Shown: piece by piece, positions 9,187 to 61,401 of the stretch
How the letters are laid out: every line of letters starts with the position of its first letter
Position numbering within the stretch: position 1 is the first letter of the stretch
Origin: an uncultured virus (IMG/VR IMGVR_UViG_3300035210_000116)
Lineage: Duplodnaviria > Heunggongvirae > Uroviricota > Caudoviricetes
Virus record (IMG/VR): IMGVR_UViG_3300035210_000116
DNA length: 64,000 nt
Direction: 5' to 3' (one strand)
Notes under the pieces: model-generated
The model's input: the letters and a program-made list of their open reading frames with translations, nothing else
Told to the model about the DNA's origin: nothing
Database searches by the model: none
Position numbers and translations under genes: made by a program

Positions 9187-9197
9187 GGAGAACTTCG

Positions 9198-26800: not shown

Positions 26801-29800
26801 AATGGCCAATGTTAGAGAAGAACTTCCTAATGTTGCCAAGTACAACGATAAACCTATATCAGCAGAGAGTATAGGTGCGGCTCTTGCGGAAGCTAACAAA
26901 AATAGAACCGAAGCTATGGCCTTAGCTGAGGCTGCGGGTGAAGAGTTCGACCCTAACACTCCGGGGACGTTCGTAACTGCAGAAGAAATATTCACTCTCG
27001 CAAGACACTCGTTTGAATTCCGCGGCGAATGGCGTGAAGTTGGAACAGTCGTAGTAAAAAGCGGTGAAGGAGGGGCAGTATTCGCCGAGGAAGCGACAGT
27101 CGATAGTGATTATTATCGCGCTAACCCTATTCTTGCCGAATACAACGCAATACCAGTTAAGATAACGTCCGAACCTGGGCCAGAACACATGCGCCTGGGT
27201 GTAGCAGAGGCGGTTAAGTATTTCTACAACCTATCAGAACGCAAAGTTCTGCTTGGGACCATGGACAACAAACTGTTCTTTGTTACTCCAGAGAAGAGGC
27301 AAGAATTTCTCGACGACTATAAATTACGAGATACCCTTGAGGGCAATATTAACTTCCTTGAACGAATAGGCACCATCTTGAAGAAAGAGAGCGGCGATCG
27401 CAAGATGCACAAGGTAGATCACATTAAGCATCTACTCAACCAAGATGATGGTAAAGGTGGCTTGAAGCATGAGAGCGATGGCACAGTAGGCATAATTGAG
27501 AATGCGGAGTTGACGCAGGGAGTTATGCGCAGATGGGTTACTGACACCAGTGCTCCAAACAGGCGCGGGTATTGGAAAGTAGATAAAGGAATTCTTCGTT
27601 CTCCTTTACAGTTCCGCGACTGGAAACGCGCGATAAATACTGAAACAGGAATGGTTGATCTTAAGGCCCTTGCGGCTTCTGAGACACTAACTGAAGAGCA
27701 ACAGGCGCTTAATGCCGCGCTCCAGTTTGGTAAAAAACAAACAAAAACTACTGATAATGGAGATGCTGCTGAGATTGAGTGGTACCGTATGTTCCCTCCT
27801 GCATCTCAGCGTGGAGGTTCCGTAAACTACCAGCAGATAATGTTTAGTGATAATGATAGAGCCATCGCGTATGCGAAGCAAGATCGTGCGCGCTTAAGCG
27901 GGATATCGAACGCCATTGACGAAATCTATGCTGATAACCCAGAAGTAATAAGAAAAATTGCACTTGGCATGTCTCCAGCTGATCTGATATCTCAAGAAGG
28001 ACCGTTGAAACTGCTGACTCAATTCAAGGCTGATACGTCTCGTGCATATGTATTCGCATCTGAAGAACTGCTTGATGCTCTCATACCACTGGACAAGAAA
28101 GCACTCACCAAGATAAAGGGTGAATTTGCAATTAGATATCAGCGTAAGTATGAAGGTAGTCGATCAGAGTGTCTACTTCTTCCTGAAACATACAACGAAA
28201 TGAATAAGATATGGCGCAAGAGAAACAATGATCGCAATCTGCAAGAAGGCGATATTGTTATTCTTCACCGTGATCCCGCTCTTCCTGACGCTTCCTCCAT
28301 GGCACCGTTTATATTTCGCGGTATAGCTACGTTGCAGAATGACTTTGGTTCTCATAACCGCGGCATCGTTGTTCATTCTAACGCTACAGGATGGGCTGAA
28401 GCAGCAGGCGACTTCGATGGAGACTCCGGTGTTCTCACGTATCCTGATCCAAACTTAATACCGGCCAAGCAGCGCCAAGATACTAACGCTCCTGGAATTA
28501 GTTTCATGAAATATGGCGCGGATAAAGAAGAGCCATACACAAAGTTCATTCCAGTTGGGGCGATAATAGCTTTCACCAAGCCTGGTGATACTGCTGTCAC
28601 GAGAATAGAAATAAATGCTGATAAGTCTAATCTGATAATACCTGATGGCGTGAAGATGACGAATGTAACCATACAAGCCCCTATAATGCAGAGATCAATA
28701 GAGGATGAAACGGGCGGTGTAGCTGAACCTGAGATAATGGGGCACGAAAAAGAAATAGACCTCGTTGGACATATAGCGACTATACGTGCGACGGGCTTCA
28801 GTCAGATGATTGGCAACATAATGAGCCTGGCTCAAAAAGCCGCCGAAATCGGTCTCTTAGATAAACTTGTGTACATTGAAAAAATGGACAGACACGGTAA
28901 CCCTGTTGTCAATAAAGCAACAGGGCTTACAGAAGAGACGCACGTCACTTTTGCCATACTTGCCGCCAAACTCGGGCAGGCTTCTATAAGCGCGAAGAAG
29001 AAAGCGGCTTTTGCCGAACAAGCCATGAAAGCTTATAAGAAGCTCACGGAATTCATCGACGATAATTCTCCCGTTGAACGTGACCCTCAAACTGGCCAAG
29101 TGCTTATGCGTACTATAAAGCACGGTCCAGACAAGGGCAAGCAAGTACCAATAAAAGGTTCTTACTTCATTAAACTTTTCCGCGATATTTCTGATGCACC
29201 AATACGTAGTTCTGAAAGCGCTAAATTGCTCAAAGCTCTCGCGGTAAAAAATGACGCACTTTTCTTTAAACAGAAAGGATATACGCCTCAAGTATTCGTA
29301 AAAGACGGCGCTTCGCCAAAAGGCTACTGGGGTAAACCAGTAACTAAGGATGAGTGTCTTGAAGTAGCTTTTATGGCGGCGCTCAGAGTGCTGCGAAACT
29401 ACAGAAATGACAGATTCCGTACGCTTGAGGATATTCTCAGATCGACCGATAAATCTCCGGAGGTAACGAGTCTTCAGCTGCAGGCGAGAGCTTTAACAAT
29501 CGAACTACGCAAAACAATTGATCCAGTCATAGCCAAAGAACTAAAAACACCTTTCGCTGTACTACAACATACCATCAAATACTACGGCGGCGGAATCGAG
29601 GCTATTATCGACCCAGCAGGCGCTATAGGTTCCACATGGTATGCTCTTAAGCCAGAGTTAAAGAATTCACCAAACTATTTTGATAATACTCCTTCAATGC
29701 ACATAGAGCTTGCTTGGCGCACCATAGTGCTCAAGAAAATATTCACGGCAATTGATTTGTTCAGTTCAGGCGGTTTTAACGAAGCACTAAGCGCCGCGGC

Positions 29801-32800
29801 AGTAAAGCTATCAGAAGAATCTGGAAAAAATAATCCGACCGTACATGAATACCTTAGACGGACGAATGAGTACTATAGATATCTTTCCAATAAACGCCAA
29901 GACTTGGATACTATAGATGATAGACAAGAGATAGAGAGCTATCTTAATGAACGGTCCATCCTTAATAGCCAGCTAAAATACTACTATAACCTGAACGTTT
30001 TGACGGGGTCCCAGCTCATCGCGTATGGCCCGCAGGCAATGGCAGCAAGACTAATAACGATTCCAGAACTGGAAAAGATAGCGTCCTTAGCCAAGAACGC
30101 TGGTACTTTCAGAATGTCCGTTACAGTCGCTGATAAGGCCGGAAATAAGCTCCTAACTAGTGACATAATTCCTGGTATCTACAAAGCGGCCGACGACGGG
30201 AGTTTCACGCTTGTAAGAAATCTCGACAATACCGCTGAACCTGGTTCGATCAAACTACAACGATACCGTGAACCAGGGACAAAAAACAAGATAGCCTATG
30301 ATGCAGTCGACCCACTACCTCAAATGAGGGAGATGAGTGATATACGGCTTGGTGCTAAGGATGAAGTTATCATAATCCCACTCGACCCAACTACTGGGGC
30401 GACACGTCAGGTCCAGGTAAACACTCTTTCAGCTACTAATGAAACCGTCGTTAAGGCACAAGCCGAAGCTAAAGCGCAAGCTGGCGATATGGAAATTGCC
30501 TTCAGCACATGGCCAGCTATGCCAGCATCTGATGTCAATACCAGACCAGGTGAACCACACCTCAGTGATGCGCAGAGATTATCGCAGGCCATAACAGATC
30601 CAGCCGTAGCTAGTGGAGCAAAACCTTTCCCCTTAGCGCCGCGTGTGTATGAGGATAATCTAGGTAAATGGTATGCCACGTTTGTTGAAAGAAAGAGCAG
30701 GAACGAACCAGACTACAGAAAAATACTAATCAACAAGGTCTACCACTATTTTAGAGTAGAACGCGTAGAGCAAGCTCCGAGACGTGGTGCTGATATCAAG
30801 CAGCCTTGGGTTACATACCTTGGCACAGATTACAACACAGCTTTGAATACTGCGTATGCCGGTGGATCGCTTCCAACCGTAACAAGAGCTAATTTTGATA
30901 GAGAAAAGAAGCTGAAGCAACAAGAAATTGCCAATATGCCGCTTCGCAAGGCAATTTCCGATTACGTTGCTTCCATATCCACAAAAGCAGAAAACGCGCC
31001 TACAGTTGCTGAATATAATACACTGCTTGGCCTGCTCGACCCGAGCACTTTCACGAGAGGGGGCGAGTTTAAGGCCCTTTATGATAGAATAGTAGAATTT
31101 CTTCCTAGGGTAATCGTATCTCGCGAGACTGGTAGAGTGCTTAGCAGGGAGTCCGACAAAGAAAAAGCCAAAAAGAAGCGCCAGGAGCTTTATCCAGACC
31201 TGCTTAATCCTGCCCAAGAACTTGCGGCAGTTAAGTTTTTTGTGGCTGAAGCCGCTAGATTAGCAGCCACGATAGAACCGGTCAAGAGTGCTGATCCAAG
31301 TCTTGTAAGAAACCAGATTAAACTCACTCTTCCAGCAATCTATGATGACTTAAGCTCTGATAGATATTCATATAACGAGGCGCGTGTAGCCAGAGATATG
31401 GAGCGTTCTAGTCGAGCTACGACTTTTATAGGAAGCCACGATGGTACAGCGTGGGCTGCGCACTACGCTAGTCTGTGGGGCAACAAAGTAAATACTGGGC
31501 AATATACCAAGGACGACATTGTTTTCGTTGTAGTAAATAGTCCTAGACTTGATGGAACGCACTTTAATGACGACACAGCTGAAGCGCATCACATAAAGAA
31601 ATGCATCGAGGAAGCTGCTAAAGCAGGCGCTAAGTTCCTGTTCCCGAATATAAAACTTCTTTTGGCAGTGTCTGAAGATCGCGCCAAGGCGAGAGTAACA
31701 GGTAAACCAGCCACCAAGCTGGAGTATGCCGGTGAGTACGACGCGGCCACATTCCTAAATAAACTTGGGCTGGGTTACGCTATACCGACTGAAAAATCTG
31801 CTGATCCAACTCTTTGGGAGAAGGCTGAAACCGGTGTAAAGGCGAGTTCGTTGTTTAGTGCTAACGCAGACGCGGCTATAAATCTTGACCCTGATCCACA
31901 TGCTACCAACTCTTTGGCTCACGTTGAATTACGTACCATGAACTCTGCACAAACTACTGCGGAGTTACAGAATGCGACGGACAGTCTTGGCTTCCTTGTA
32001 GGACACGCAGGAAAAACACCAAAACTGATAAACGCAGAACTTATGTATGATGCACTGATACGAACTGGCATTCAGAAGAATATAGACCTTGCTGGGCAAA
32101 TACTCGAATACGCTAGAACACAAGGTAGAAAAACCTGGGCCGATGAGAAAGGTGTCGTCCATACTAGAAAGGGTAGATTCGGAACAGGTACTCGTGGGGT
32201 AATGCTCCCGCAGTCGGATGGTACTGTATTTATCTATGTCGCAGGTGGAAAGCATGATACGAAAGCTGCACAACTTGGTATTTTGGCGCACGAGCTCGGT
32301 CACTGGTTGATTGATGCTGAGTGGGCCCACCTAAATGATATTGGTGGCAACAAGGTACTAGCCGCTAAGATACGCGCTGCTGCCCTTGCGCACATGAGCA
32401 AGAAGAACATACCAGTTAGTGAGGCTGCATTCCATGAATGGTGCGCCGATAATATAGCTTCTTGGATTACGACTAATCCCGTTGTTCGTTCCGGCATGGA
32501 CACATGGTTCAAGAGAGTAGCCGATAACCTAAAGCGCATGTGGTCTAAAATAAGGGAGCTATTTGCTGGAGTTGAAGGACGCCAGACTGATGGAACCAAC
32601 ACCTTCCCGAAAGCTGATGCCAACGTCGAAGAGTGGATGAACAGTCTGCTTAAGCTGAAGGATCCACAAGAGGTTGTGTTGGCATATGGTCCCGACAATC
32701 CAAGCGGTTCCGCTAGCACTATAAGCATAGTAGACAGAATCGCACAGCGAAAAGTTCGTCTTAAGAGATGGGCAGATACTGGAAATATGGACATTCAGGC

Positions 32801-35618
32801 TGTCGATGAAATAATTCCATACATTAGGGACAATCTTGAGCGTTTACTTACACCAGGTGACGCACAAACTCTGCAGCGAGTTTCTCAAGAGCCGAACATG
32901 CAGCGGCGGCTGTCACAACTTCTAAAACCTGGAAGTAAAGCAGCACAAGCTGTCGCAGCGGACTATAAGACGGCAGCGGCATACGTTTATGTACTAACTA
33001 GCACTGGGGTCCTTGTACCTTCGCAGCAAGTACGTAGTATTCTGTCGACGTTAGGCGATCTGATAATGCAGAAGAACCGTAAGTCTCTTGAAGCCACGTC
33101 GGCCGAGAACGATGCAGTTATAGAGAGCTTTGCTAAAGCTGACCTCTATATACCTGCCACTGAGTCTCTGATTGACACAGACTCGATCGCACATAGACTT
33201 ATTCTGGATAGATCCAAGCGGTATGCAAAAGGTGCACTTGGCGCAGCACAAAAGACTACGCAAACATACAACGAACTTCTTGGTGGTTACTTAAACGTCC
33301 CGTACGGGCAAGTCCTTGCAACGGGTATTCCTTCCTTGATTAAATTTGCCAACACACTTCAACCTATGGCTTGGAACTTGGCTGGTTTCAAACCGCTTGG
33401 AGCAGGAGAAAGAGGAAAGGCGCAGTCACAAAGATGGTTTGTCGAAGCTGCTGACATAGTTGTGAAGCTAACCGAGGCGGGTAAAAAAGATCTTCTAGGT
33501 TTACTGTATCCACTAAAAGGTGGCGATACGCCTGTTGTACCTCCAAACGTTACCGCTGCCCATGAAAGAATAAAGAGACTCTTGGCAAAGATATTTGAAT
33601 ATGAGAATGATCCTGCGCTTGTTAAGTATTTAGCAGTTCCAAATCGTAAAGATTACTGGCCGATGATTCCTAAGAATGACTATATCAGAGACAACATGGA
33701 TTCTACTGTCGCTCTGTATCTCGGAGAACAATCGTTCAAAGATGGTTGGGACGATGTAAAGGTTCACTACATCGACTGGATTAACTCCAACCAAGATCCA
33801 GGGGATGAATCCAATATAACTGTGGCGGTAGCAAAAGTAAAGGCTATGACTCAACCGGAGTTCGTTAAGTTCTATCTCGAACGTGATGATGAGCACCTTC
33901 TTCCAGGGTGGAGATTGCATCAATTGAGATCAGGAGTGACTTCTACTCCAGGCTTTAGGTTCAAGAATCCACGGGAGCTTAACTTCTTACTAGGAAGTAA
34001 GGACAAGGCGACCCATGAAAGAGTGCTTGAGACCCTTGAAACTGATCCGACGGTTGTCCTGGCTAGGTATGCGCGTAATGCAACTAAGCGCGTTGAGTTT
34101 GCTCGCCTAGTATCAACATTACCTAAGCTACGAAAGAAAGATGCCACAGGTGAAATGGTGACTGACCCGTTGGGCAGTTTTGCTGGGCTGTGGCAACAAG
34201 TGGGATTAGAGGCTGAGGATTCTAAAGCTGCTGCCAAAGCTGTAGCTCTTACGATCAATTATGTTGACGCCGTCAATGGACAACTAGGTTTGAAACAGCG
34301 TGATGCTATTGATCATTGGCTGGAAGCGATGTACCCGAACAATCCTGAAGCTTGGGTGAGAGCTAACTTCCATTCGGGTGGCGGTCAGATCATGAACGAG
34401 AACTTGAACAACATCCGTTCTGGACTGCATGCTTATGTCGACATAGTTCATCTTTCGCTTAATGCACTCACCAGTCTGGTAGATCCACTTGGAGTCCTAG
34501 TAAAAATGGGAGACGGGAAGGCATTCATCAAAGTCATGAATGAGACGCGCGCCAGTTTGATAAACCAGTTTAAGGGAATGCCTCCAGGAGCAGTTGACTT
34601 GATGCTCAAGCAGGCAGGTGTTGAGAGTCACTCGTTCCAGAATGAAGACTTACAAGCCACTTATAATGGTCCAGAAACTGCTATGTGGGCCCAGAAGCTA
34701 CTTGGCCAGTGGTTCAAGATGATAGGTGTCGATGCCATAGGTAGAGGAACCTCTAAACTAGCTGGGCACGGATCAAACGAAAAGCTGATCGCTTGGGCTA
34801 AGGGCGCACAGGTAGGTGCTGCGGGTACTGCTGAAGAGCTTGCACGCCACGGTTTGACATGGGAGGATGTTCGCACGTCGACAGAAGCTGAACTTCTTGG
34901 TTACGGAGTAGAAGCAGCAGAAGCGAGAGAAAAAGCAGGGGAAGTTCTGCATCTTCTGACATTCGATGAATATTGTGCTGCTGTCGATGCTGGAGATACC
35001 AAAGAAATTGAGCGCGATCTGCGCGTCCGTGGAGCTATATTCCGCTTCGTTGAAGAAAGCCAAGTACGTCCTGGGGCTACTACGCGCTCGTTACCGATGA
35101 GTAATCCATATTTTAGCTTGCTGAGTATCTGGCGATCTTACATACTGGCTTTTGACAACCAGATTGGGAAACCTGCTTGGGCTAAGCTCGGAGAAGAAGG
35201 TAATGGATACCCACTGGCTTTCTTGATACTTGCTTACATCCCAGTGTTGTTGTTCGCCGAAGTTATACGAGAAGCAATCAAAATGGCATTTAGTGATAAC
35301 GAGGACGAGGACGGAAACAAGAGTTGGACCCCACCGTATAGATCAAACTGGACATTTGGCGACTACATTGGGTACGCGGCGGGTAAAGCAGGACTTTATG
35401 GCCCTTCAGAAATCCCGATAGACGCTATTAAAGCGACCGTCAACAGTGGAATGAGCAAAGGTATTGCGTCGGCTGGTGGAGTGCTAACAAGTGATATTTG
35501 GAAGTACGATCGGTATGGCAAACTGCCTCTGCCTTTGCAGGATGCAACCTCCAACTGGAGCACAGCGAAAAGTAAGAAAGACAGCGACGTTGAATCATCT
35601 AGTATCAGAGCAGGCTAA
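23850..35618 (+). CDS. Giant polyvalent virion protein with putative double-psi beta-barrel RNA polymerase domain and zincin-like motif
   Basis: GDIVILHRDP (R1474)...AGDFDGDSGV (D1521-D1525); VDKGIL upstream; LAHELGH (H2814) with downstream HEWCAD. Confidence 0.75.
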   Translation: MSNQVQYENPFSDDQELAERYAKGRASTEKDSAFLGALRGGVSSLKGTSVSALSAGAHAIGLDSVGSKLDRSAAKTMAQSQGESFLTPSLQDVNNAQSLGRWVAGNIASNIPLFGSLALGGAAGGVLGAATHGKRGLAKAIDKANTKELEKILEKDYGASASTARAAENLIKPADEKDFLKNAVSAGLSRVTLRSRIGSDIGSILPYAVQTSGENEQAYQNDPNSTATEKEKARMALKLGLAESIVGSYVSPMAVLQRFTKAEKAIDKAAKYSGLSKTEKSKMLAKAAAKEWLHAGVNESATELFEDSISQWGGRQLNPDLDYNVAQGIESGLAGGVVGGAMASPAALSAMHRARKTALDEEEQAFENSPEGTQQKIDALDTEVPESEKDFTFHLVRSDLLQTKAVRLLHTTTANPADIIQTFKDLKDAQAVAPTNINDKDKWIHNIARLEKASQDLLAAHPVELASFAHYAATPTTQPGSKPRGTPEEELHINGQVDKDLFVSLFLAQGNQELVDLAQGKDNLDVSTALQGNDEVEIDTATRGLALKLHRMYETMLHNPVDQELSTKLLTARNELFEKTGVVAIPFSPVEKKEQIAIFTAIKDTSKDPNIRVDAIERIVALSLNVPDHISDSLKLEERTRVLHPDVLPNSFFDTNHTESDSARHNRIDSAYNMAEAALEKNPDNPLLAAQVERLNSTLAQLEISEGKIRPSSSEEVLRTEKVELESKGKENLTPREQTRLLRINGALMQRARLTARGSTVSDEEAEEQRKSETVKKVEIQAKPQGLPSNHVLSSFPDKADDNAEFGYVGVDRSGYAIIKGKSGLRQYSIVRIPPTINELIGQPADSANPAIPPKPIYFGGTALEYGEAAEMIVKAHTEGKPLDYKAFYREAERQYHESRPLIPLDGHTPTPLMVRSDYEGNLIHIPSESDRISRRAPFVAIIPADPTGKIVIKHTRSGVLVEIPVNLEDLLIMKKKKADNSFTMANVREELPNVAKYNDKPISAESIGAALAEANKNRTEAMALAEAAGEEFDPNTPGTFVTAEEIFTLARHSFEFRGEWREVGTVVVKSGEGGAVFAEEATVDSDYYRANPILAEYNAIPVKITSEPGPEHMRLGVAEAVKYFYNLSERKVLLGTMDNKLFFVTPEKRQEFLDDYKLRDTLEGNINFLERIGTILKKESGDRKMHKVDHIKHLLNQDDGKGGLKHESDGTVGIIENAELTQGVMRRWVTDTSAPNRRGYWKVDKGILRSPLQFRDWKRAINTETGMVDLKALAASETLTEEQQALNAALQFGKKQTKTTDNGDAAEIEWYRMFPPASQRGGSVNYQQIMFSDNDRAIAYAKQDRARLSGISNAIDEIYADNPEVIRKIALGMSPADLISQEGPLKLLTQFKADTSRAYVFASEELLDALIPLDKKALTKIKGEFAIRYQRKYEGSRSECLLLPETYNEMNKIWRKRNNDRNLQEGDIVILHRDPALPDASSMAPFIFRGIATLQNDFGSHNRGIVVHSNATGWAEAAGDFDGDSGVLTYPDPNLIPAKQRQDTNAPGISFMKYGADKEEPYTKFIPVGAIIAFTKPGDTAVTRIEINADKSNLIIPDGVKMTNVTIQAPIMQRSIEDETGGVAEPEIMGHEKEIDLVGHIATIRATGFSQMIGNIMSLAQKAAEIGLLDKLVYIEKMDRHGNPVVNKATGLTEETHVTFAILAAKLGQASISAKKKAAFAEQAMKAYKKLTEFIDDNSPVERDPQTGQVLMRTIKHGPDKGKQVPIKGSYFIKLFRDISDAPIRSSESAKLLKALAVKNDALFFKQKGYTPQVFVKDGASPKGYWGKPVTKDECLEVAFMAALRVLRNYRNDRFRTLEDILRSTDKSPEVTSLQLQARALTIELRKTIDPVIAKELKTPFAVLQHTIKYYGGGIEAIIDPAGAIGSTWYALKPELKNSPNYFDNTPSMHIELAWRTIVLKKIFTAIDLFSSGGFNEALSAAAVKLSEESGKNNPTVHEYLRRTNEYYRYLSNKRQDLDTIDDRQEIESYLNERSILNSQLKYYYNLNVLTGSQLIAYGPQAMAARLITIPELEKIASLAKNAGTFRMSVTVADKAGNKLLTSDIIPGIYKAADDGSFTLVRNLDNTAEPGSIKLQRYREPGTKNKIAYDAVDPLPQMREMSDIRLGAKDEVIIIPLDPTTGATRQVQVNTLSATNETVVKAQAEAKAQAGDMEIAFSTWPAMPASDVNTRPGEPHLSDAQRLSQAITDPAVASGAKPFPLAPRVYEDNLGKWYATFVERKSRNEPDYRKILINKVYHYFRVERVEQAPRRGADIKQPWVTYLGTDYNTALNTAYAGGSLPTVTRANFDREKKLKQQEIANMPLRKAISDYVASISTKAENAPTVAEYNTLLGLLDPSTFTRGGEFKALYDRIVEFLPRVIVSRETGRVLSRESDKEKAKKKRQELYPDLLNPAQELAAVKFFVAEAARLAATIEPVKSADPSLVRNQIKLTLPAIYDDLSSDRYSYNEARVARDMERSSRATTFIGSHDGTAWAAHYASLWGNKVNTGQYTKDDIVFVVVNSPRLDGTHFNDDTAEAHHIKKCIEEAAKAGAKFLFPNIKLLLAVSEDRAKARVTGKPATKLEYAGEYDAATFLNKLGLGYAIPTEKSADPTLWEKAETGVKASSLFSANADAAINLDPDPHATNSLAHVELRTMNSAQTTAELQNATDSLGFLVGHAGKTPKLINAELMYDALIRTGIQKNIDLAGQILEYARTQGRKTWADEKGVVHTRKGRFGTGTRGVMLPQSDGTVFIYVAGGKHDTKAAQLGILAHELGHWLIDAEWAHLNDIGGNKVLAAKIRAAALAHMSKKNIPVSEAAFHEWCADNIASWITTNPVVRSGMDTWFKRVADNLKRMWSKIRELFAGVEGRQTDGTNTFPKADANVEEWMNSLLKLKDPQEVVLAYGPDNPSGSASTISIVDRIAQRKVRLKRWADTGNMDIQAVDEIIPYIRDNLERLLTPGDAQTLQRVSQEPNMQRRLSQLLKPGSKAAQAVAADYKTAAAYVYVLTSTGVLVPSQQVRSILSTLGDLIMQKNRKSLEATSAENDAVIESFAKADLYIPATESLIDTDSIAHRLILDRSKRYAKGALGAAQKTTQTYNELLGGYLNVPYGQVLATGIPSLIKFANTLQPMAWNLAGFKPLGAGERGKAQSQRWFVEAADIVVKLTEAGKKDLLGLLYPLKGGDTPVVPPNVTAAHERIKRLLAKIFEYENDPALVKYLAVPNRKDYWPMIPKNDYIRDNMDSTVALYLGEQSFKDGWDDVKVHYIDWINSNQDPGDESNITVAVAKVKAMTQPEFVKFYLERDDEHLLPGWRLHQLRSGVTSTPGFRFKNPRELNFLLGSKDKATHERVLETLETDPTVVLARYARNATKRVEFARLVSTLPKLRKKDATGEMVTDPLGSFAGLWQQVGLEAEDSKAAAKAVALTINYVDAVNGQLGLKQRDAIDHWLEAMYPNNPEAWVRANFHSGGGQIMNENLNNIRSGLHAYVDIVHLSLNALTSLVDPLGVLVKMGDGKAFIKVMNETRASLINQFKGMPPGAVDLMLKQAGVESHSFQNEDLQATYNGPETAMWAQKLLGQWFKMIGVDAIGRGTSKLAGHGSNEKLIAWAKGAQVGAAGTAEELARHGLTWEDVRTSTEAELLGYGVEAAEAREKAGEVLHLLTFDEYCAAVDAGDTKEIERDLRVRGAIFRFVEESQVRPGATTRSLPMSNPYFSLLSIWRSYILAFDNQIGKPAWAKLGEEGNGYPLAFLILAYIPVLLFAEVIREAIKMAFSDNEDEDGNKSWTPPYRSNWTFGDYIGYAAGKAGLYGPSEIPIDAIKATVNSGMSKGIASAGGVLTSDIWKYDRYGKLPLPLQDATSNWSTAKSKKDSDVESSSIRAG

Positions 35619-45136: not shown

Positions 45137-45732
45137 CAAGACAATACGATGATGACAGTGGTGGCTCCATGCTTGGCACAATCGCAAAAGGAACAGGACT
45201 ACTAGGCGCAGGATTGACTATGACACCAGTTGGTAGACCGCTGCGAAAGTCAATAAGAAAGTTCGCGAGTCCTTTTGAGAGGCAGATCAGCGCTGTAGAA
45301 ACTGCTTTAGGTAAGACGAAAGCGCCTATACAGGAAGGCCTAAACATAGCAACAGGCGGTGCTTTTGGGTTAGGAAAACTCGCACAGAAAGACGCAAGAT
45401 TAGAGAGAGAACTACTACAAAATAGGAAAGACCCAAACTTGTGGAGTTCAACAGGACAAAATTTTCGGGATCTAGGATCAGGTATTGTAAATGCTGGACG
45501 CGGAATTAAAGAAACCCTAGCTACTTTACCAACTGCTGCTACCGTAGCTCTTCGTAAAAAGGGCACCGAAGCAGAGCCAATGGGATCAGAAATGTGGAGG
45601 ACTTGGTTAGCTTCTCCAAGATCAAAACATTTTTCTCCTGATGAACTAGAACTGATATTACGCCATCCTGGAACTACTCCTGATGAAAAGGCGCTTGCCT
45701 ATATGCGAGGAATAGCTAATGCTAAACTATGA
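45133..45732 (+). CDS. Hypothetical protein related to the array
   Basis: AGGAG RBS; C-terminal DELELILRHPGTTPDEKALA module shared with array members. Confidence 0.65.
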   Translation: MTRQYDDDSGGSMLGTIAKGTGLLGAGLTMTPVGRPLRKSIRKFASPFERQISAVETALGKTKAPIQEGLNIATGGAFGLGKLAQKDARLERELLQNRKDPNLWSSTGQNFRDLGSGIVNAGRGIKETLATLPTAATVALRKKGTEAEPMGSEMWRTWLASPRSKHFSPDELELILRHPGTTPDEKALAYMRGIANAKL

Positions 45733-46207
45733 AAAAGACGGCCGTATGGCCGTTCTCCTTTTCCTTGGGAAGTACGTCGTTAAGACCTACCCCACAGTAG
45801 CCGAATCACTTGGTCTTACTAACAAGCAGCATCTAGCAAAATTACTAAAAGATCGGTTAGAAAAAGACAAGCTAAAAGCCCGTATTGCAATAGACTGGAG
45901 AAAACAACTCGCTGCTAAATTGATGTTGGCAGATGACGAAATAGTACGAGCTACAAACACGATACTGGAAGTGATCGAAGATACCCTTGCTAAGGGAGAG
46001 CCAGTAAGAATCAAACACTTCGGTGATTTTCTCTTAACAGAAAGAGATTTTGAGGGAACTAAAATCAATACAGTGAGATTTAAGATTTCTCCATCTTGGT
46101 TAAGAGATCTAAATCCACCGCATAGCGATGCAGACCTTGGTTTGAAAAGAAAGTATGGGAAGCGTCTTGAACGAAAGGCTCCTTCTAAAACTATTCAGTC
46201 CCCCTAA
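45719..46207 (+). CDS. HU/IHF-like DNA-binding protein with N-terminal extension (start uncertain)
   Basis: ILEVIEDTLAKGEPVRIKHFGDF...VRFKIS matches the HU/IHF pattern. Confidence 0.7.
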   Translation: MLNYEKDGRMAVLLFLGKYVVKTYPTVAESLGLTNKQHLAKLLKDRLEKDKLKARIAIDWRKQLAAKLMLADDEIVRATNTILEVIEDTLAKGEPVRIKHFGDFLLTERDFEGTKINTVRFKISPSWLRDLNPPHSDADLGLKRKYGKRLERKAPSKTIQSP

Positions 46208-49558: not shown

Positions 49559-50425
49559 TTATATTGCCATTTTCATAGGATGTGATAATTTAGGATGTGG
49601 ATCATAGTTGTTAAACCAACACCATTGTTCGAGAGGAATTGTAGTCTGTTCAAGAAAATGTAAATCTGAGCATCTAGGATGAATAATTAGAGTCGGTTGC
49701 TTTCTTGGTTCTCGTTTAATTTGTTCGGTCAATGCTTCAATGTGATTAACATAAATATGATAGTTAAAAGCAAAGTATAATAACTTACCAAAGTTATGGC
49801 CAGTTATTTGTGCCATTATAGCTAGTAACCAAGCATATTGTGTTACATTGAACGGCATTCCAAGTCCAACATCATTAGAACGAACATACACAAAAAGATC
49901 TAACTTATCTTCGCGCAAACCAAATTGGTAAAACATATGGCAAGACGGTAAGGCCATCATATTTAGTTCTCCTGGATTCCAATAAGAAACTATTTCTCGC
50001 CTATTATCGATTCCAGCACAAAGATCTTCGTAGACTTTTGTAACTTGATCTACAGAATACCCTTTACTATCTGTACGCCATTTTCTACCCTGAACGCCAT
50101 AAATTCTTCCTAAATCATCTACACCTTTTCGATGAAAATTATTTAACCACGTATCATTTTTATTGGCGTTAGCATCCCAGACTTTAGTACCTAAAGTTCT
50201 AAAGTCGGCAGCATTATCATATCCGCGAATAAAACCTAATTGTTCAGCAAACGCCGATTTCCAAGCAATAGGTTTTGTTGTTAGAATAGGAAACCCTTCT
50301 GCAAGATTAAACTCTAGCAGTATTCCTAACTTATACAAAGTATCTATGCCGGTACGATTGCTAGCTCGCAATCCTGTAGCTAAAATGTCGCTCACTAAGG
50401 CTATATAGGCATTATCAAAATTCAT
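49559..50425 (-). CDS. thyA: Thymidylate synthase
   Basis: RTG, LGRIYGVQ, ALPSCH, RSNDVGLGMPFN, HIYVNH; AAGGAG RBS before ATG at 50425. Confidence 0.95.
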   Translation of the reverse strand: MNFDNAYIALVSDILATGLRASNRTGIDTLYKLGILLEFNLAEGFPILTTKPIAWKSAFAEQLGFIRGYDNAADFRTLGTKVWDANANKNDTWLNNFHRKGVDDLGRIYGVQGRKWRTDSKGYSVDQVTKVYEDLCAGIDNRREIVSYWNPGELNMMALPSCHMFYQFGLREDKLDLFVYVRSNDVGLGMPFNVTQYAWLLAIMAQITGHNFGKLLYFAFNYHIYVNHIEALTEQIKREPRKQPTLIIHPRCSDLHFLEQTTIPLEQWCWFNNYDPHPKLSHPMKMAI

Positions 50426-50466
50426 ATAAAACTCCTTGGTAGGCCATCCCTGGCCCAAAGTTCCGA

Positions 50467-51276
50467 TCAATAGTAATCGGAGTCTAGGTCCTGCTCGTCA
50501 TCCTCTTCGTAATTCGGATCCAAGCTGCCACCATAGTTGATTCTGGCCTCATTGAAGTGACCAACCACCTCATCGGTGATGTCCGTAAGAACTTCATACC
50601 CACGACAACGAAGTTTCGAATCGTTGTAATCCGTAGGAATAGTTCCAACGTCTTCAGGCCCAATAGCAACAGCCACGATCCTATCACCATCGTTATAGTA
50701 TGTACGCAGATAGTCTCTAGAACATGCATGATAGCCACGTGAACATGTGACGTTTGGGTCAGTGTCGACCTTAGACCAGTCCAACTTTGGAACTACCGTA
50801 CCCGGAGCGTTCGAGATAGCTTTAGTACGCTTGTCCGAATAATCATTGCAGACAATCTTGAAAGCCAGAAACCGGCCATCAGGTAAGATTGGCATCTTTG
50901 TAACTTCCATGAAGCGGAACATCCGTGAACGAGTATCATGGCTAGGATTCTCAAACAGCCGTTTGATGAAATTAACGACTGGTTCGTAATTACCATCGTC
51001 GATAGCAGCACGAAGATAAACCGCCAGATCCATGGCAATCGGAGTACCCAGATAGGTATATCCACCGCCAGAAGTCTCGATGCCTTCTTCAACCAGCTTA
51101 AGGAATAAATCCTCAGCCCGACCTTTGATGCTCAGCAGTTGTTTCAGTTCTTCCTCATCTTGCTCAAACAGAGCTTCTTTAACGGCAGCAAACCGTCTGT
51201 CAGAACATGAGACAGGGTAAGGAACGCCGTCTAGGACGATGATAACCTCGTCATCTCTTTTAATATAATTGATCAT
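50467..51276 (-). CDS. rIIB: rIIB-like protein
   Basis: DGRFLAFK, VDTDPNVTCSRGYH, IPTDYNDSKLRCRGYEV. Confidence 0.85.
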   Translation of the reverse strand: MINYIKRDDEVIIVLDGVPYPVSCSDRRFAAVKEALFEQDEEELKQLLSIKGRAEDLFLKLVEEGIETSGGGYTYLGTPIAMDLAVYLRAAIDDGNYEPVVNFIKRLFENPSHDTRSRMFRFMEVTKMPILPDGRFLAFKIVCNDYSDKRTKAISNAPGTVVPKLDWSKVDTDPNVTCSRGYHACSRDYLRTYYNDGDRIVAVAIGPEDVGTIPTDYNDSKLRCRGYEVLTDITDEVVGHFNEARINYGGSLDPNYEEDDEQDLDSDYY

Positions 51277-56638: not shown

Positions 56639-57273
56639 ATATGGGCATCCTTTATTGGTTCATTGTTCTTGACGTTATAAACAGCGGAGTTTACAACTCC
56701 AACTATTGTCGTTGTTTGTTTCTCGTTTATTTTGGTCGACGAGATTCGTATTGTGAGATTTGGAGCAATCTGTTTACTTAGCGCTGAGACATAGTTCCTT
56801 TGTTGAGTTGGAAGCCATACGTTTACATAAGGTTCTATGTTCCAAGCGATTTGATTAATATCCTCCATCATCTGAGTTGATTGAACATCGCCCGAATCAA
56901 AGAAACGAAAGTATTGATATTTATCTGCTAGATATAGCAGTCGTATACTCATTAAAATAACCCAATCCTTGTCATTTTTCCAACCATAGTAGCGATTATG
57001 CAAGGCGCTTTTGACCGTTTCAAAGGAGTACCTTCCTTTTAACGCATAACATGTGGAACAAGGAGTTCCAGGAATTTTGCGCAAGGTAGATCCAACTTGG
57101 CATTTAGTTGCAGAGATGGACCACGAGGGTCCTGGCATCTTTGAAGTGAAACTGAGAGTTCCGATCCGTTTATCGATCTCTTCAAGTATTTTTGTTTTCG
57201 ATGTTGCTTGTAAGTTAGTTTGTAAGGTTGTCTGTAAAGCAGTAATTTTGCGATTTACAGGCGTATCTTCGAT
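56548..57273 (-). CDS. GP88-like Cys-rich protein (probable non-canonical ATC start)
   Basis: SKMPG..C...CSTCYALKGRY, FRFFDSGD, CGQCRAC; frame open 45 codons upstream of the ATG, to an ATC after GAGGAG. Confidence 0.65.
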   Translation of the reverse strand: MEDTPVNRKITALQTTLQTNLQATSKTKILEEIDKRIGTLSFTSKMPGPSWSISATKCQVGSTLRKIPGTPCSTCYALKGRYSFETVKSALHNRYYGWKNDKDWVILMSIRLLYLADKYQYFRFFDSGDVQSTQMMEDINQIAWNIEPYVNVWLPTQQRNYVSALSKQIAPNLTIRISSTKINEKQTTTIVGVVNSAVYNVKNNEPIKDAHICPSRYQQNQCGQCRACWDLNQEYVIYHQH

Positions 57274-57341
57274 AGTATTCTCCTCAACTGGCGACTAGCT
57301 GATATATTTGGTCTTTACTTTCCTAGATAGACGATTCGTGA

Positions 57342-57505
57342 TGTATAGAGGAACTAGATAGGACTCGAACCTATTTGATCGGGGCATATTGAATTATCCA
57401 ATAGTACACATGTGCACTGTGTAGTATCCTTTCTTTCGTTACCTGTTCCGAGACGGTCAGTAATCCGTTCTGCCTACCCATAGCCGTTACAAGTTCCTCT
57501 ATGCA
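57342..57505 (-). ncRNA. tRNA-like RNA E (long closing stem plus T-arm)
   Basis: TGCATAGAGGAACT/AGTTCCTCTATACA; ATAGG-TTCGAGT-CCTAT. Confidence 0.55.
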
Positions 57506-57516
57506 CCATAAAGGGA

Positions 57517-57686
57517 AGGTCAACCTAGGAATCGAACCTAGTATAACAGAGATCGTTATGCACTTGATCTCCACTGCTATCCTGTTTGCCCGGGCCCCTT
57601 CCGCACCCTGTCTCTTTCCATAAGATGACCCAAATACAAATGCTATTACCTGGCCAGATAATTCGCTTTGTACCAAGATGTTGACC
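57517..57686 (-). ncRNA. tRNA-like RNA D (~170 nt)
   Basis: Acceptor GGTCAAC/GTTGACC; T-arm CTAGG-TTCGATT-CCTAG. Confidence 0.6.
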
Positions 57687-57691
57687 ATAAT

Positions 57692-57757
57692 TGGTGGACA
57701 ATAGCGGTGTCGAACCGCTTATTCCTACGTGATAGGAAGTATTCCCGATAATTGCCC
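57692..57757 (-). ncRNA. 66-nt D-stem-less tRNA-like RNA C with Ala identity elements
   Basis: GGGCAAT/ATTGTCC-A-CCA (G3.U70, A73); T-arm AGCGG-TTCGACA-CCGCT. Confidence 0.65.
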
Positions 57758-57767
57758 ATAGTTTGAT

Positions 57768-57848
57768 TGGTTGACACTGGTGGATTCGAACCACCACCTC
57801 CCCCGCGTTAAGCTTAAACGCGTGGGAAAGACTTCCCAAAGAGTGCCA
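57768..57848 (-). ncRNA. 81-nt tRNA-like RNA B with G3.U70
   Basis: TGGCACT/AGTGTCA-A-CCA; T-arm GGTGG-TTCGAAT-CCACC; hairpin CGCGTT-TAAGCTT-AACGCG. Confidence 0.65.
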
Positions 57849-57852
57849 GTAT

Positions 57853-58060
57853 TGATCTCCAGTACGGGAGTCGAACCCGTTATAGACTATACTGCGTGCA
57901 TTACTTCGCAGCGAACACTGAGATTAAAACGCGCATCATCGAAACTAACTCGTCTCTGGGCTAGCCACTGCACCTGCAAAATCCCTCAGTTTCCTAAAGT
58001 CATCGCTTTTTCGCTTCACCTCTTCGTTTTTAGGCGGCGGTACCATTTGCCTTACTGGAG
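57853..58060 (-). ncRNA. tRNA-like RNA A (~205 nt) with large central insertion
   Basis: Acceptor CTCCAGT/ACTGGAG; D-arm GGC-AAATGGTACC-GCC; T-arm ACGGG-TTCGACT-CCCGT. Confidence 0.65.
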
Positions 58061-58065
58061 TTAAT

Positions 58066-58139
58066 TGGCGGGTCAGCAGGGAATCGAACCCCAGTCAGTA
58101 GTTTTGGAGACTACTACTTTGCCACTAAGCTACAAACCC
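58066..58139 (-). tRNA. trnW: tRNA-Trp (CCA)
   Basis: GGGTTTGTAGCTTAGTGGCAAAGTAGTAGTCTCCAAAACTACTGACTGGGGTTCGATTCCCTGCTGACCCGCCA folds as a cloverleaf with encoded CCA. Confidence 0.9.
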
Positions 58140-58401
58140 TGAAAGCTTCTTCATTATCACGACATTTAATAACGTCATCCCAGTCGACCCATTTTCCGCT
58201 ATCTCGATCAAAGATATCATAACAACCTACTTTTTCAAGGTTTACTTCTCTGTTATCTGCTTCTTTATCTTCCTTAGCAAGAGCTTCGATATCCTCCCAT
58301 TTGACCCAGTCTCCTATTGTGTCTTGAATGGATTCCCAATGGCATCCATATTCTAAACCGTAGGCGGCAATATCGTATCTGTCAAGTTGTTCAATTTGCA
58401 T
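58114..58401 (-). CDS. Hypothetical protein, paralog of the next gene; 3' end overlaps tRNA-Trp
   Basis: LDRYDI...GDWVKWEDI...DIFDRDSGKWVDWDD. Confidence 0.6.
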   Translation of the reverse strand: MQIEQLDRYDIAAYGLEYGCHWESIQDTIGDWVKWEDIEALAKEDKEADNREVNLEKVGCYDIFDRDSGKWVDWDDVIKCRDNEEAFRVCSLVAK

Positions 58402-58646
58402 TTCGTTTCACTTTGTTCTTTGATCCGGGTGGTCGACCCCTTTTCTTCTTTAAGACTGGCACAGATATCATCCCAGTCCAACCATCTGCGTCCTTCTCTG
58501 TCAAAGATATCACAGTATTCGAGTAGTTTGATAATTTTGGCGATATCTCTCCATTTGACAAAGTCTCCTCTTGAATCGGATTCTTCGGTCCAATAGACTC
58601 CATATTCTCCGTCGTCATAAGCATAAATATCGTATCTTTCAAGCAT
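58353..58646 (-). CDS. Hypothetical protein
   Basis: GAGG RBS; LERYDI...GDFVKWRDI...DIFDREGRRWLDWDD. Confidence 0.6.
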   Translation of the reverse strand: MLERYDIYAYDDGEYGVYWTEESDSRGDFVKWRDIAKIIKLLEYCDIFDREGRRWLDWDDICASLKEEKGSTTRIKEQSETKCKLNNLTDTILPPTV

Positions 58647-60306: not shown

Positions 60307-60983
60307 CAGAATTTTCTTATGCTAGCTTCGCCATCATTAATCTCAAGAACTTCTCGTTTTCTTGGAAAACAATCGACATTGAAGTTATCTGGATAAACTT
60401 CCCATACTCCTTGTGAGGTACCAAAAGGACGATAATTAGAATGTCCAAACACTTGTTTGATGCCAGGGACTGGTTTAAATTCTTCTGTATCACACCAGAG
60501 AATTCCTCCAACAGGAAATAGGCCGCCTCTAGTATAGCCAATTTGTGCGAGGTTTTCGATTGGTGCTTCATCAAGATATTTTACTATTTCTTGAAAATTC
60601 ATATCTTTTTCAGGTAACCAACTTTCGCTGACTCCAGCGTGAGTGACGAGAAAATCATCTACTATAACATACCATCGAAAATTTCTTAAAATACGTGCCT
60701 TCCGTTTGTTTATTTCTTGCTGTGTTTTATGTTCATAACCAGAACATGCATAACGATTATTCAAATACCCATATTCGTGATTCGCGATTAAAGCAGTTAC
60801 ATTATCTCTTGTTTCAATAGCTTCTAAAACTAAATCAACGCATTCTATTTGTTCATCTATGTTTTTATCAAAGCTATCTACAAAATCAGATACGAATACT
60901 GTGGCTTGGTCTTTGTCTTGGAGCAAATCTCTAACATGGCCGACCAACCCATGGATGTCGCCGCATACAATAACGCTACTCAT
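60306..60983 (-). CDS. Metallophosphoesterase
   Basis: GDIHG, DFVD, NHE, THAG, QVFGHS. Confidence 0.8.
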   Translation of the reverse strand: MSSVIVCGDIHGLVGHVRDLLQDKDQATVFVSDFVDSFDKNIDEQIECVDLVLEAIETRDNVTALIANHEYGYLNNRYACSGYEHKTQQEINKRKARILRNFRWYVIVDDFLVTHAGVSESWLPEKDMNFQEIVKYLDEAPIENLAQIGYTRGGLFPVGGILWCDTEEFKPVPGIKQVFGHSNYRPFGTSQGVWEVYPDNFNVDCFPRKREVLEINDGEASIRKF

Positions 60984-61401
60984 TTGATGTTTCTCTAAGT
61001 GCTAGTTCCAAAATAGCTAGAGCATTCCACGCTGCATGCGCTAAGTGCAATGACCCAGATTCTTTATCATTTGGCCCTTCAATGAATTGTTTGAGGGTGT
61101 GGCGTCCTTGCGCATCGCTATAGCGAGTCATTCCGTCTTGTACGGTTCGCCAACCACCTCGTGTGTATTTATTAGCTCCATCTCCTGCAACCTTTGCAAC
61201 AGCTAACAAGGCTCGTGGAAAACTTTCAAAGACAAGACCAACTGGAGGCTTGTCGTCGTCATCTTTTGCCCCCGGCTGATGAAGATTTAGTTTCTTGGTA
61301 ATTAGAGGGTTTGGATTTGGAGCTGTTAAAACTATCTCAAGTATTTCTCTGAAGGAAGCTTGTGAATCACCATGCCATTCAAACTCGTTGTGGTCATTCA
61401 T
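60976..61401 (-). CDS. dATP/dGTP diphosphohydrolase-domain (DUF5664) protein
   Basis: GAKDDDDKP, GANKY..GWR, ESGSLHLAHAAWNAL. Confidence 0.8.
   Translation of the reverse strand: MNDHNEFEWHGDSQASFREILEIVLTAPNPNPLITKKLNLHQPGAKDDDDKPPVGLVFESFPRALLAVAKVAGDGANKYTRGGWRTVQDGMTRYSDAQGRHTLKQFIEGPNDKESGSLHLAHAAWNALAILELALRETSNE

Follow-up and report, generated by a model that had tools for sequence, protein, structure and literature searches.

Bacteriophage T4 encodes RNAC (species 1, 139 nucleotides, nt) and RNAD (species 2, 119 nt), two proven stable transcripts whose genes (AF158101, 70908–71171) lie head to tail, rnaD before rnaC, behind tRNA-Arg on the same strand with gaps of 1 and 6 nt. In rnaC a T arm (CCGGG-UUCGAAU-CCCGG) is followed by a strand that pairs at five of seven positions with the RNA's own 5′ end, and ∼95 nt of hairpins lie between these ends. 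The roles of both RNAs are described as unknown in passages of two articles from 2010 and 2022 (PMC3014915, PMC9697503), and Rfam holds no family for either. Here we report on an array behind a tRNA-Trp gene in a 64,000-nt stretch of DNA (the window) from the uncultured tailed virus IMGVR_UViG_3300035210_000116 (Caudoviricetes). We favour, with moderate confidence, the view that this array consists of one tRNA gene and five co-oriented genes for tRNA-shaped small RNAs, E1–E5, of the T4 RNAC/RNAD kind.

Three other groups of tRNA-like molecules bear on this locus. The YrlA RNAs, as described by Chen et al. (2014, PMC4201824), mimic tRNA and are found within 4 kb of Ro60 genes in 254 bacteria and 22 phages; in Mycobacterium smegmatis YrlA is cleaved by RNase P and receives CCA. 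Mycobacteriophage DS6A is described as carrying a transfer-messenger RNA (tmRNA) reduced to the tRNA-like domain (TLD), with little sequence beyond it, and a molecule of this TLD-only type is reported to inhibit tmRNA strongly, perhaps through titration of SmpB (Hudson et al., 2014; PMC4131195). Finally, tRNA introns have been reported in Lak megaphages (Devoto et al., 2019; PMC6784885).

Identification of the array

The window comprises two IMG/VR records, G001 (window 1–47.9 kb) and G002 (83.6 kb), with window positions equal to G002 positions plus 47979, which places the array at G002 9366–10160 (Table 1). The source is peat metagenomes, and the DNA is that of a large tailed phage, which encodes rIIA, DNA polymerase, thymidylate synthase and a P22-type portal. 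Three DNA data sets from peat contain all or part of this stretch as contigs without a single difference, which left no variation to read; no RNA run was among the runs listed for it.

As canonical tRNAs we accepted elements that reached the Rfam curated cut-off of 29 bits or were called by ARAGORN at its default threshold. The sole gene called by ARAGORN in the whole window was tRNA-Trp, and Rfam at gathering score likewise returned tRNA-Trp alone from the window. A permissive Rfam scan of positions 57000–58500 (E ≤ 10) yielded tRNA-Trp and, on E2, a low-scoring tRNA hit (16.4 bits, E 4.2), with no match for E1, E3, E4 or E5 and no intron, ribozyme, tmRNA or Y-RNA family. The initial annotation, made from the sequence alone, had described five non-canonical tRNA mimics behind a normal tRNA-Trp that use acceptor and T arm as their scaffold, and had expected standard finders to miss most of them. 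This is borne out by these scans, by the motif count and module script described below and by the sequence itself, and none of the five matches an Rfam family.

The motif GGTTCGANNCC has six copies in the 64 kb, all of them minus-strand and confined to 57361–58090, against an expectation of 0.36, and none of 100 shuffles reached six copies. A script that looks for a T arm and then an abutting 7-nt strand with a fully pairing upstream partner recovers E1–E4, in each of which a 7 bp acceptor stem stacked on a 5 bp T stem with a UUCRANN loop is complete. By chance, a 7-mer with full pairing turns up fairly often within 300 nt (0.23–0.31 per element); that the closing partner should lie ≤ 13 nt behind the preceding element in E1–E4 jointly has a chance of ∼3 × 10−8, and the perfect 11 bp helix of E5 one of ∼5 × 10−3. 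The closing and T stems pair fully while spanning 62–204 nt, acceptor and T arm are present in the minimum-energy folds of E1–E4, and the folds of E2, E3 and E4 are better than those of shuffled sequences (z −3.2, −3.5 and −2.9). The six-part array is therefore non-random and its modules are genuine. From tRNA-Trp to E5 the spacers measure, in order, 5, 8, 10, 5 and 15 nt, so that the packing is tight, as originally noted, over a range of 5–15 nt and not the 4–11 nt first given. A promoter and terminator scan found nothing above chance.

Table 1. Elements of the array, reading frames next to or across it, and further unusual tRNA-like elements of the phage (window positions, or G002 positions where marked)
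Feature	Position	Strand	Description	Basis
Array	57345–58139	minus	tRNA-Trp, then five tRNA-shaped modules E1–E5, co-oriented	
tRNA-Trp(CCA)	58066–58139	minus	Head of array; encoded GCCA end	ARAGORN; Rfam RF00005, 59 bits
E1	57857–58060	minus	204 nt	Script, sequence, fold
E2	57768–57848	minus	81 nt including ACCA	Script (57848–57772 + ACCA), fold, lowered-threshold ARAGORN
E3	57692–57757	minus	66 nt including ACCA	Script (57757–57696 + ACCA), fold, lowered-threshold ARAGORN
E4	57518–57686	minus	169 nt	Script, fold
E5	57345–57502	minus	158 nt	Sequence; closing helix
Upstream protein-coding open reading frame (ORF)	58114–58401	minus	95 aa	Codon score 0.179, within range of the window's true genes
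ORF across E4 and E5	57371–57688	minus	105 aa; judged not a gene	Codon score −0.032
tRNA with 56 nt in place of anticodon loop	G002 30536–30656	minus		Rfam, 46.9 bits
Class II Leu(tag)	G002 30666–30817	minus	62-nt AT-rich insert	ARAGORN intron mode
126-nt gene	G002 29991–30116	minus	D arm, extra 52-nt hairpin, GUA anticodon arm (loop CUGUAAA), ACCA	
48-nt mini element	G002 30478–30525	minus	Acceptor, hairpin, T arm	Folds better than shuffles
Two related ∼70-nt units	G002 30190–30259, 30118–30189	minus	7–9 bp closing stem, RCCA, no T loop	Fold better than shuffles
Weak tRNA match	G002 29758–29830	minus	Loop CUUUAGG (UUA, ochre-suppressor-like), degenerate T arm	25.9 bits

Compact and expanded modules

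The five modules are not one uniform class and fall into two groups, the compact E2 and E3 and the expanded E1, E4 and E5. E2 is closed by the acceptor UGGCACU/AGUGUCA, with G2-C71, G3·U70 and A73, and has the T arm GGUGG-UUCGAAU-CCACC; a canonical D arm and a G18-G19 D loop are lacking. Its remaining sequence can form either a 6 bp hairpin with the loop UAAGCUU, which contains AGC and has A33 and U37 but not U33, or, in the best fold (−32.8 kcal/mol, z −3.19), a 13 bp rod-like arm. ARAGORN names E2 tRNA-Ala(agc) only when its threshold is lowered to -ps85. The same three acceptor features recur in E3 (acceptor GGGCAAU/AUUGUCC, T arm AGCGG-UUCGACA-CCGCU), where a 12-nt linker occupies the place of the D arm and a single hairpin, UUCCU-AUCACGU-AGGAA, shows CAC in its loop. 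ARAGORN reports E3 as tRNA-Val(cac) at -ps85 or -ps90 only, and its fold (−20.6 kcal/mol, z −3.47) was equalled by none of 200 shuffles. Set against a 48-nt mini element from another part of the same genome (Table 1), E3 shows, in our reading of this within-phage paralogue comparison, two compensatory exchanges, the T stem exchanging G-C for A-U and the acceptor A-U for U-A.

In E1, E4 and E5 the closing stem and the T arm are separated by ∼100–130 nt of unrelated, structured sequence. E1 has a closing stem of seven Watson–Crick pairs (CTCCAGT/ACTGGAG), the T arm ACGGG-TTCGACT-CCCGT, a core of ∼130 nt and the tail A-UCA, CCA not being encoded; it also holds a D-loop-like hairpin, GGCA-AAUGGUAC-CGCC, that contains UGGUA. 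Its minimum-energy fold (−60.1 kcal/mol) gave a z of −1.22, which is not significant. E4 likewise closes with seven Watson–Crick pairs (GGUCAAC/GUUGACC) and has the T arm CUAGG-UUCGAUU-CCUAG, four internal hairpins and the tail U-UCC; its minimum-energy and centroid folds agree, contain both acceptor and T arm, and at −54.8 kcal/mol (z −2.94) were not equalled by any of 200 shuffles. Of the five, E5 resembles a tRNA least. Its T-arm-like hairpin, AUAGG-UUCGAGU-CCUAU, is accompanied by a perfect 11 bp closing helix, AUAGAGGAACU/AGUUCCUCUAU, that begins 2 nt past the T stem, while an alternative, abutting 7 bp register contains one mismatch. The T arms of E4 and E5 agree at 14 of 15 bases (z 4.2), and the first pair of the T stem, C-G in E4 and A-U in E5, is in our reading a further compensatory difference in this within-phage comparison of paralogues.

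Two generalizations of the initial annotation accordingly need narrowing: a T arm directly abutting a strand that pairs with the module's own 5′ end holds for E1–E4 and not for E5, and the replacement of the D and anticodon regions by unrelated sequence is incomplete, as an anticodon-like hairpin persists in E2 and E3, and the D-loop-like hairpin described above in E1. No anticodon stem was found around the cores of E1, E4 and E5 in either sequence or folds. Furthermore, pairwise local alignments of all inserts revealed no shared insert family, giving similarity in the T arm alone. The pentamer GUGCA recurs in several loops and is too short to weigh.

Comparison with T4 RNAC and RNAD

The arrangement of the array closely resembles that of T4, as its first module begins 5 nt behind tRNA-Trp on the same strand. 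What E1–E5 have in common with T4 rnaC is a T arm together with a closing helix formed from the RNA's own ends, with non-tRNA structure between them. In RNAD we saw no T arm. The closing stems are 7–11 bp and perfect in the array, compared with five of seven in RNAC, and five such RNAs are present compared with two in T4; the T4 RNAs are established transcripts, whereas those of the array are predicted. A distant blastn search with 57300–58200 against 50,697 phage records matched three records, in each over tRNA-Trp only, and found no similarity to T4 rnaC or rnaD. As the design is the same and sequence similarity to T4 is absent, we regard E1–E5 as new members of an RNAC-type kind and not of a sequence family. 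The array thereby adds members to a long-known and still unexplained kind of phage RNA, with the T4 design present in five copies in a soil phage unrelated to T4. It further shows that phage tRNA counts obtained with standard finders overlook a sizeable set of tRNA-derived genes.

Alanine-type acceptors of E2 and E3

According to PMC9976931, the bacterial acceptor determinants for alanine are A73, G2-C71, G3·U70 and G4-C69, with G3·U70 as the major determinant, and the titles in its reference list point to alanine charging of RNA minihelices. E2 and E3 possess three of these four determinants. Among the ∼20 acceptor stems of the phage, read by eye, G3·U70 is found in E2 and E3 only; elsewhere in the array position 3-70 is C3-G70 (E1) or U3-A70 (E4). 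Given their encoded ACCA and the presence of G2-C71, G3·U70 and A73, E2 and E3 are probably charged by the host alanyl-tRNA synthetase (AlaRS). For AlaRS substrates G20 is listed as well, and both E2 and E3 are without a D loop.

An acceptor of the tmRNA type (G3·U70, A73 and a CCA end) is likewise confined to E2 and E3. The suggestion that the modules might modulate ribosome rescue finds a precedent for these two only, in the alanine identity set and in the TLD-only tmRNA of DS6A. As published, the DS6A molecule resembles E2 and E3, and no other module, in being a short phage RNA with an alanine-type acceptor and a T arm and no normal decoding body; it differs in that E2 and E3 keep an anticodon-like hairpin, a comparison made against the published description of DS6A. 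No tmRNA was called in the window by the ARAGORN tmRNA search or Rfam, and no analogue of the SmpB-binding D loop was recognised in E2 or E3. A short frame in E1 that by eye resembled a tmRNA tag was rejected, given that E1 has no alanine acceptor and no finder called it. In a literature search that covered few subscription journals, no account of alanine-type mini tRNA-like RNAs from phages turned up.

Related elements in other phages

Proteins encoded around the array (GP88-like, 164-aa, rIIA, phosphoesterase, DNA polymerase and Ro60), searched for in viral contigs, led to the phage itself or to distant relatives without nearby tRNAs. In metagenome contigs the GP88-like protein was found at two distant loci without a tRNA, where T-arm scans gave no orthologue, and a pattern search with the 3′ half of tRNA-Trp gave none either.

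We also scanned IMG/VR with the fixed positions of E3 (GGGC, 20–42 nt, a T loop, then GUCCACCA), which matched at least 119 loci. The 3′ motif occurs 125 times among the matches listed; 76 of these occurrences lie inside tRNA or tmRNA genes called by ARAGORN, 19 have no closing partner and 12 are closed and ≥ 72 nt long. This leaves at least 18 uncalled, closed, alanine-type elements of 56–71 nt (15 of them distinct) in other uncultured phages, with G1-G2-G3·U70, A73 and CCA. Each of the ∼10 that were checked against the ARAGORN map fills a gap between two canonical tRNAs. Three pairs of these minis are clearly related, and in one pair, read by eye, an acceptor A-U has become U-A. As the pattern itself demands alanine features, the scan indicates that minis recur in phage tRNA arrays, and neither homology with E3 nor alanine specificity follows from it.

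Proposed origin and function of the modules

The 95-aa upstream ORF terminates 26 nt inside tRNA-Trp, and the array is therefore probably read through from it. In the scheme that we propose, the upstream gene, tRNA-Trp and the array would be transcribed as a single precursor, in which the 12 bp stack of acceptor and T arm, together with the T loop, would be recognised by RNase P, 3′ trimming enzymes and the CCA-adding enzyme, each module being cut out as a stable RNA. In E5 the stack is interrupted and the T arm lies outside the best predicted fold. None of the five is likely to be efficient at decoding, given that E2 and E3 have no D arm and E2 no U33, and that in E1, E4 and E5 the D and anticodon arms have given way to other structure. 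In the latter three, the tRNA frame may instead serve as a scaffold on which a foreign folded domain is matured, stabilised and displayed. Our best guess is that their targets are proteins reading the tRNA top half, which E1–E5 would engage or titrate. The initial annotation, which had inferred processing by RNase P and RNase Z, also listed decoys for anticodon nucleases among the possible roles.

Several observations weigh against the RNAC-type interpretation or parts of it. The folds of E1 and E5 are no better than shuffles (z −1.2 and −1.5), and the minimum-energy fold of E5 (z −1.51) lacks the T arm, its centroid consisting of the closing helix alone. No orthologue of any element was found by any of the search routes described above, and therefore no between-species covariation could be read; the within-phage paralogue comparisons depend on short alignments. 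The alanine set of E2 and E3 is incomplete, with C4-G69 in place of G4-C69, and the minis of other phages were picked by a pattern that demands alanine features. Moreover, in E2 the AGC loop and the alanine acceptor agree, and among the alanine codons of the phage GCT ranks first (38 % of 1339); E2 could therefore still decode.

A more far-reaching version of our proposal would combine these elements into a toolkit of tRNA top halves acting outside decoding. E2 and E3 would be recurrent, AlaRS-charged phage minis that disturb processes dependent on alanyl-tRNA or on tmRNA and SmpB, such as ribosome rescue, and E1, E4 and E5 would display their domains to the Ro60 protein and RNA ligase of the phage as a non-YrlA type of Y RNA. 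Taken as a whole this combination is speculative, and we consider it rather improbable. The alanine identity signal of E2 and E3, and the presence of Ro60 and RNA ligase in the same phage, nevertheless make the puzzle experimentally approachable.

Alternative explanations

The modules could be working, if deviant, tRNAs, with E2 as Ala(AGC), E3 as Val(CAC) and the inserts of E1, E4 and E5 removed or tolerated. ARAGORN at lowered threshold gives E2 and E3 just these names, acceptor and loop of E2 agree, as noted, on alanine, and the phage has, by ARAGORN, no canonical tRNA-Ala or tRNA-Val. Two insert-bearing tRNAs are found by ARAGORN elsewhere in the phage, one of which Rfam aligns with 56 nt replacing the anticodon loop (Table 1), and the introns reported from Lak phages provide a parallel in oversized tRNA-frame genes that lie in phage tRNA clusters and are missed by bacterial finders. 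In insert-bearing tRNAs, however, the 29–62-nt insert is surrounded by an intact D arm, anticodon stem and legible anticodon, whereas no anticodon stem flanks the cores of E1, E4 and E5. ARAGORN in intron mode (-i0,250) at default threshold returned only tRNA-Trp from 57200–58300, while finding the two insert-bearing genes elsewhere; at -ps90 it yielded only chimeras of two elements, and at E ≤ 10 neither group I introns nor any further ribozyme family gave a match. E2 has A33 and U37 and lacks a G18-G19 D loop. E3 has no D arm, its G3·U70 would clash with a valine anticodon, and GTG is the rarest valine codon of the phage (10 % of 818). We consider this reading unlikely. About as unlikely, in our judgement, is that E1–E5 are functionless remains, either decaying tRNA genes or debris of turnover by duplication and insertion. 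Turnover of phage tRNA sets is fast, orthologues were not found, E5 is poorly tRNA-like, the folds of E1 and E5 do not exceed those of shuffles, and other degenerate tRNA matches (25.9 and 32.9 bits) exist in the phage. Decay should nevertheless break stems, yet all closing and T stems pair fully in modules packed head to tail; the invariant T-loop residues are intact in all six T loops and the ACCA is intact in E2 and E3. The sequence identity across the three peat data sets says little either way. We also considered tRNA 3′ fragments left by integration and rejected this reading, since a 5′ strand that matches it accompanies every T arm. Lastly, part of the array might encode protein, the tRNA-like features being incidental, since the ATG-started 105-codon frame over E4 and E5 is called by gene callers on two contigs, one of them 131.6 kb long. 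Its codon score, however, falls below those of all 118 true-gene windows (minimum 0.056), the three ORFs of ∼100 codons that overlap the array scoring −0.03, −0.08 and −0.19. None of the overlapping ORFs belongs to a PHROG family, a search of 5.8 billion proteins for homologues of the 105-aa product returned only itself, and two T-arm motifs with matching closing helices fall inside this frame. The array is non-coding in character, and the probability that it specifies a legitimate protein is very low indeed.

A different role is raised by the Ro60/Rsr orthologue (535 aa) that the phage encodes at G002 27066–28673 (minus strand; window-equivalent 75045–76652), with TROVE (3 × 10−44) and Ro60 vWA (2 × 10−58) matches. 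E1–E5 might be Y-RNA partners of this protein that tether it to other factors, a role akin to the Y-RNA-like adaptors proposed in the initial annotation. The context speaks for this in several ways. In addition to Ro60, the phage has an RNA ligase gene (PF09414 with a PHA02142 OB fold; G002 17707–18738, minus strand) 7.5 kb from the array, the product of which might act on the odd tRNAs in RNA repair or joining. Mimicry of tRNA by Y RNAs of bacteria and phages is described in PMC4201824, and YrlA resembles the array in being a tRNA-mimicking non-coding RNA of phages that have large tRNA sets and a Ro60 gene. Ro-like genes were present in 381 phage records. Among them, Gordonia phage Forza (NC_070763), in which the Ro-like gene abuts the tRNA array, contains an unannotated YrlA match at about 88.6 kb of the record, inside that array between tRNA-Gln and tRNA-Ile, ∼1.1 kb from that gene (RF02553, 52.1 bits, E 5 × 10−10), which we used as a positive control for the model. 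Furthermore, no YrlA-like RNA was detected anywhere in our phage, so that its Ro60 has no identified partner. The best RF02553 match in the whole phage (15.1 bits, E 0.12) lies at a tRNA–tRNA junction outside the array (G002 30632–30694). Nevertheless, RF02553 found no match in 57000–58500 at E ≤ 10, and the motif GNCGAAN0-1G, which in YrlA belongs to the 5′ strand of the Ro60-binding stem, is absent from both strands of G002 8500–10500, in and near the array. YrlA is described as permuted, running from T arm through an acceptor-like hairpin to D arm, its Ro60-binding stem being made by the ends of the RNA; in E1–E5 the RNA ends form the acceptor stem, which is the reverse topology, and no stem in the anticodon position arises from the ends. 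The Ro60 gene, moreover, lies 16.9 kb from the array, directly after the largest tRNA cluster, whereas the Y RNAs described are within 4 kb. Without a model match or the motif, and with this topology and distance, E1–E5 are not YrlA, and although the genomic context speaks for it, we regard a partnership with Ro60 as quite unlikely.

Other unusual tRNAs and genes of the phage

In G002, ARAGORN called 13 tRNAs by default and 15 when introns were allowed; they form four clusters, every one of them minus-strand. A second cluster with oddities, at G002 28.8–31.6 kb on the minus strand, precedes the Ro60 gene and contains the insert-bearing and other unusual elements listed in the lower part of Table 1. 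Within 2.5 kb of this Ro60-side cluster the sequence TTT(T/C)AGGGCCG occurs in five copies on the minus strand (G002 31187, 29983, 29796, 28860 and 28775), two of them directly after a tRNA 3′ end; conservation is limited to the 11-nt core, which may be a promoter or processing signal.

Elsewhere, a 141-aa protein encoded at window 60976–61401 (minus strand) contains the N-terminal domain of dATP/dGTP diphosphohydrolase (PF18909, 2.5 × 10−25), and the thymidylate synthase gene lies at window 49559–50470. Together, these two genes hint at altered nucleotide pools or a modified base. The terminase-like gene (G002 62694–65714) and the ribonucleotide reductase-like gene (G002 68436–71531), both on the plus strand, carry LAGLIDADG or intein-type insertions, and two NADAR-domain genes were found at G002 45396–45902 and 66991–67488. 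In the structural-gene half of the window, a single open frame of 3922 codons extends along the plus strand from window position 23850 to 35618.

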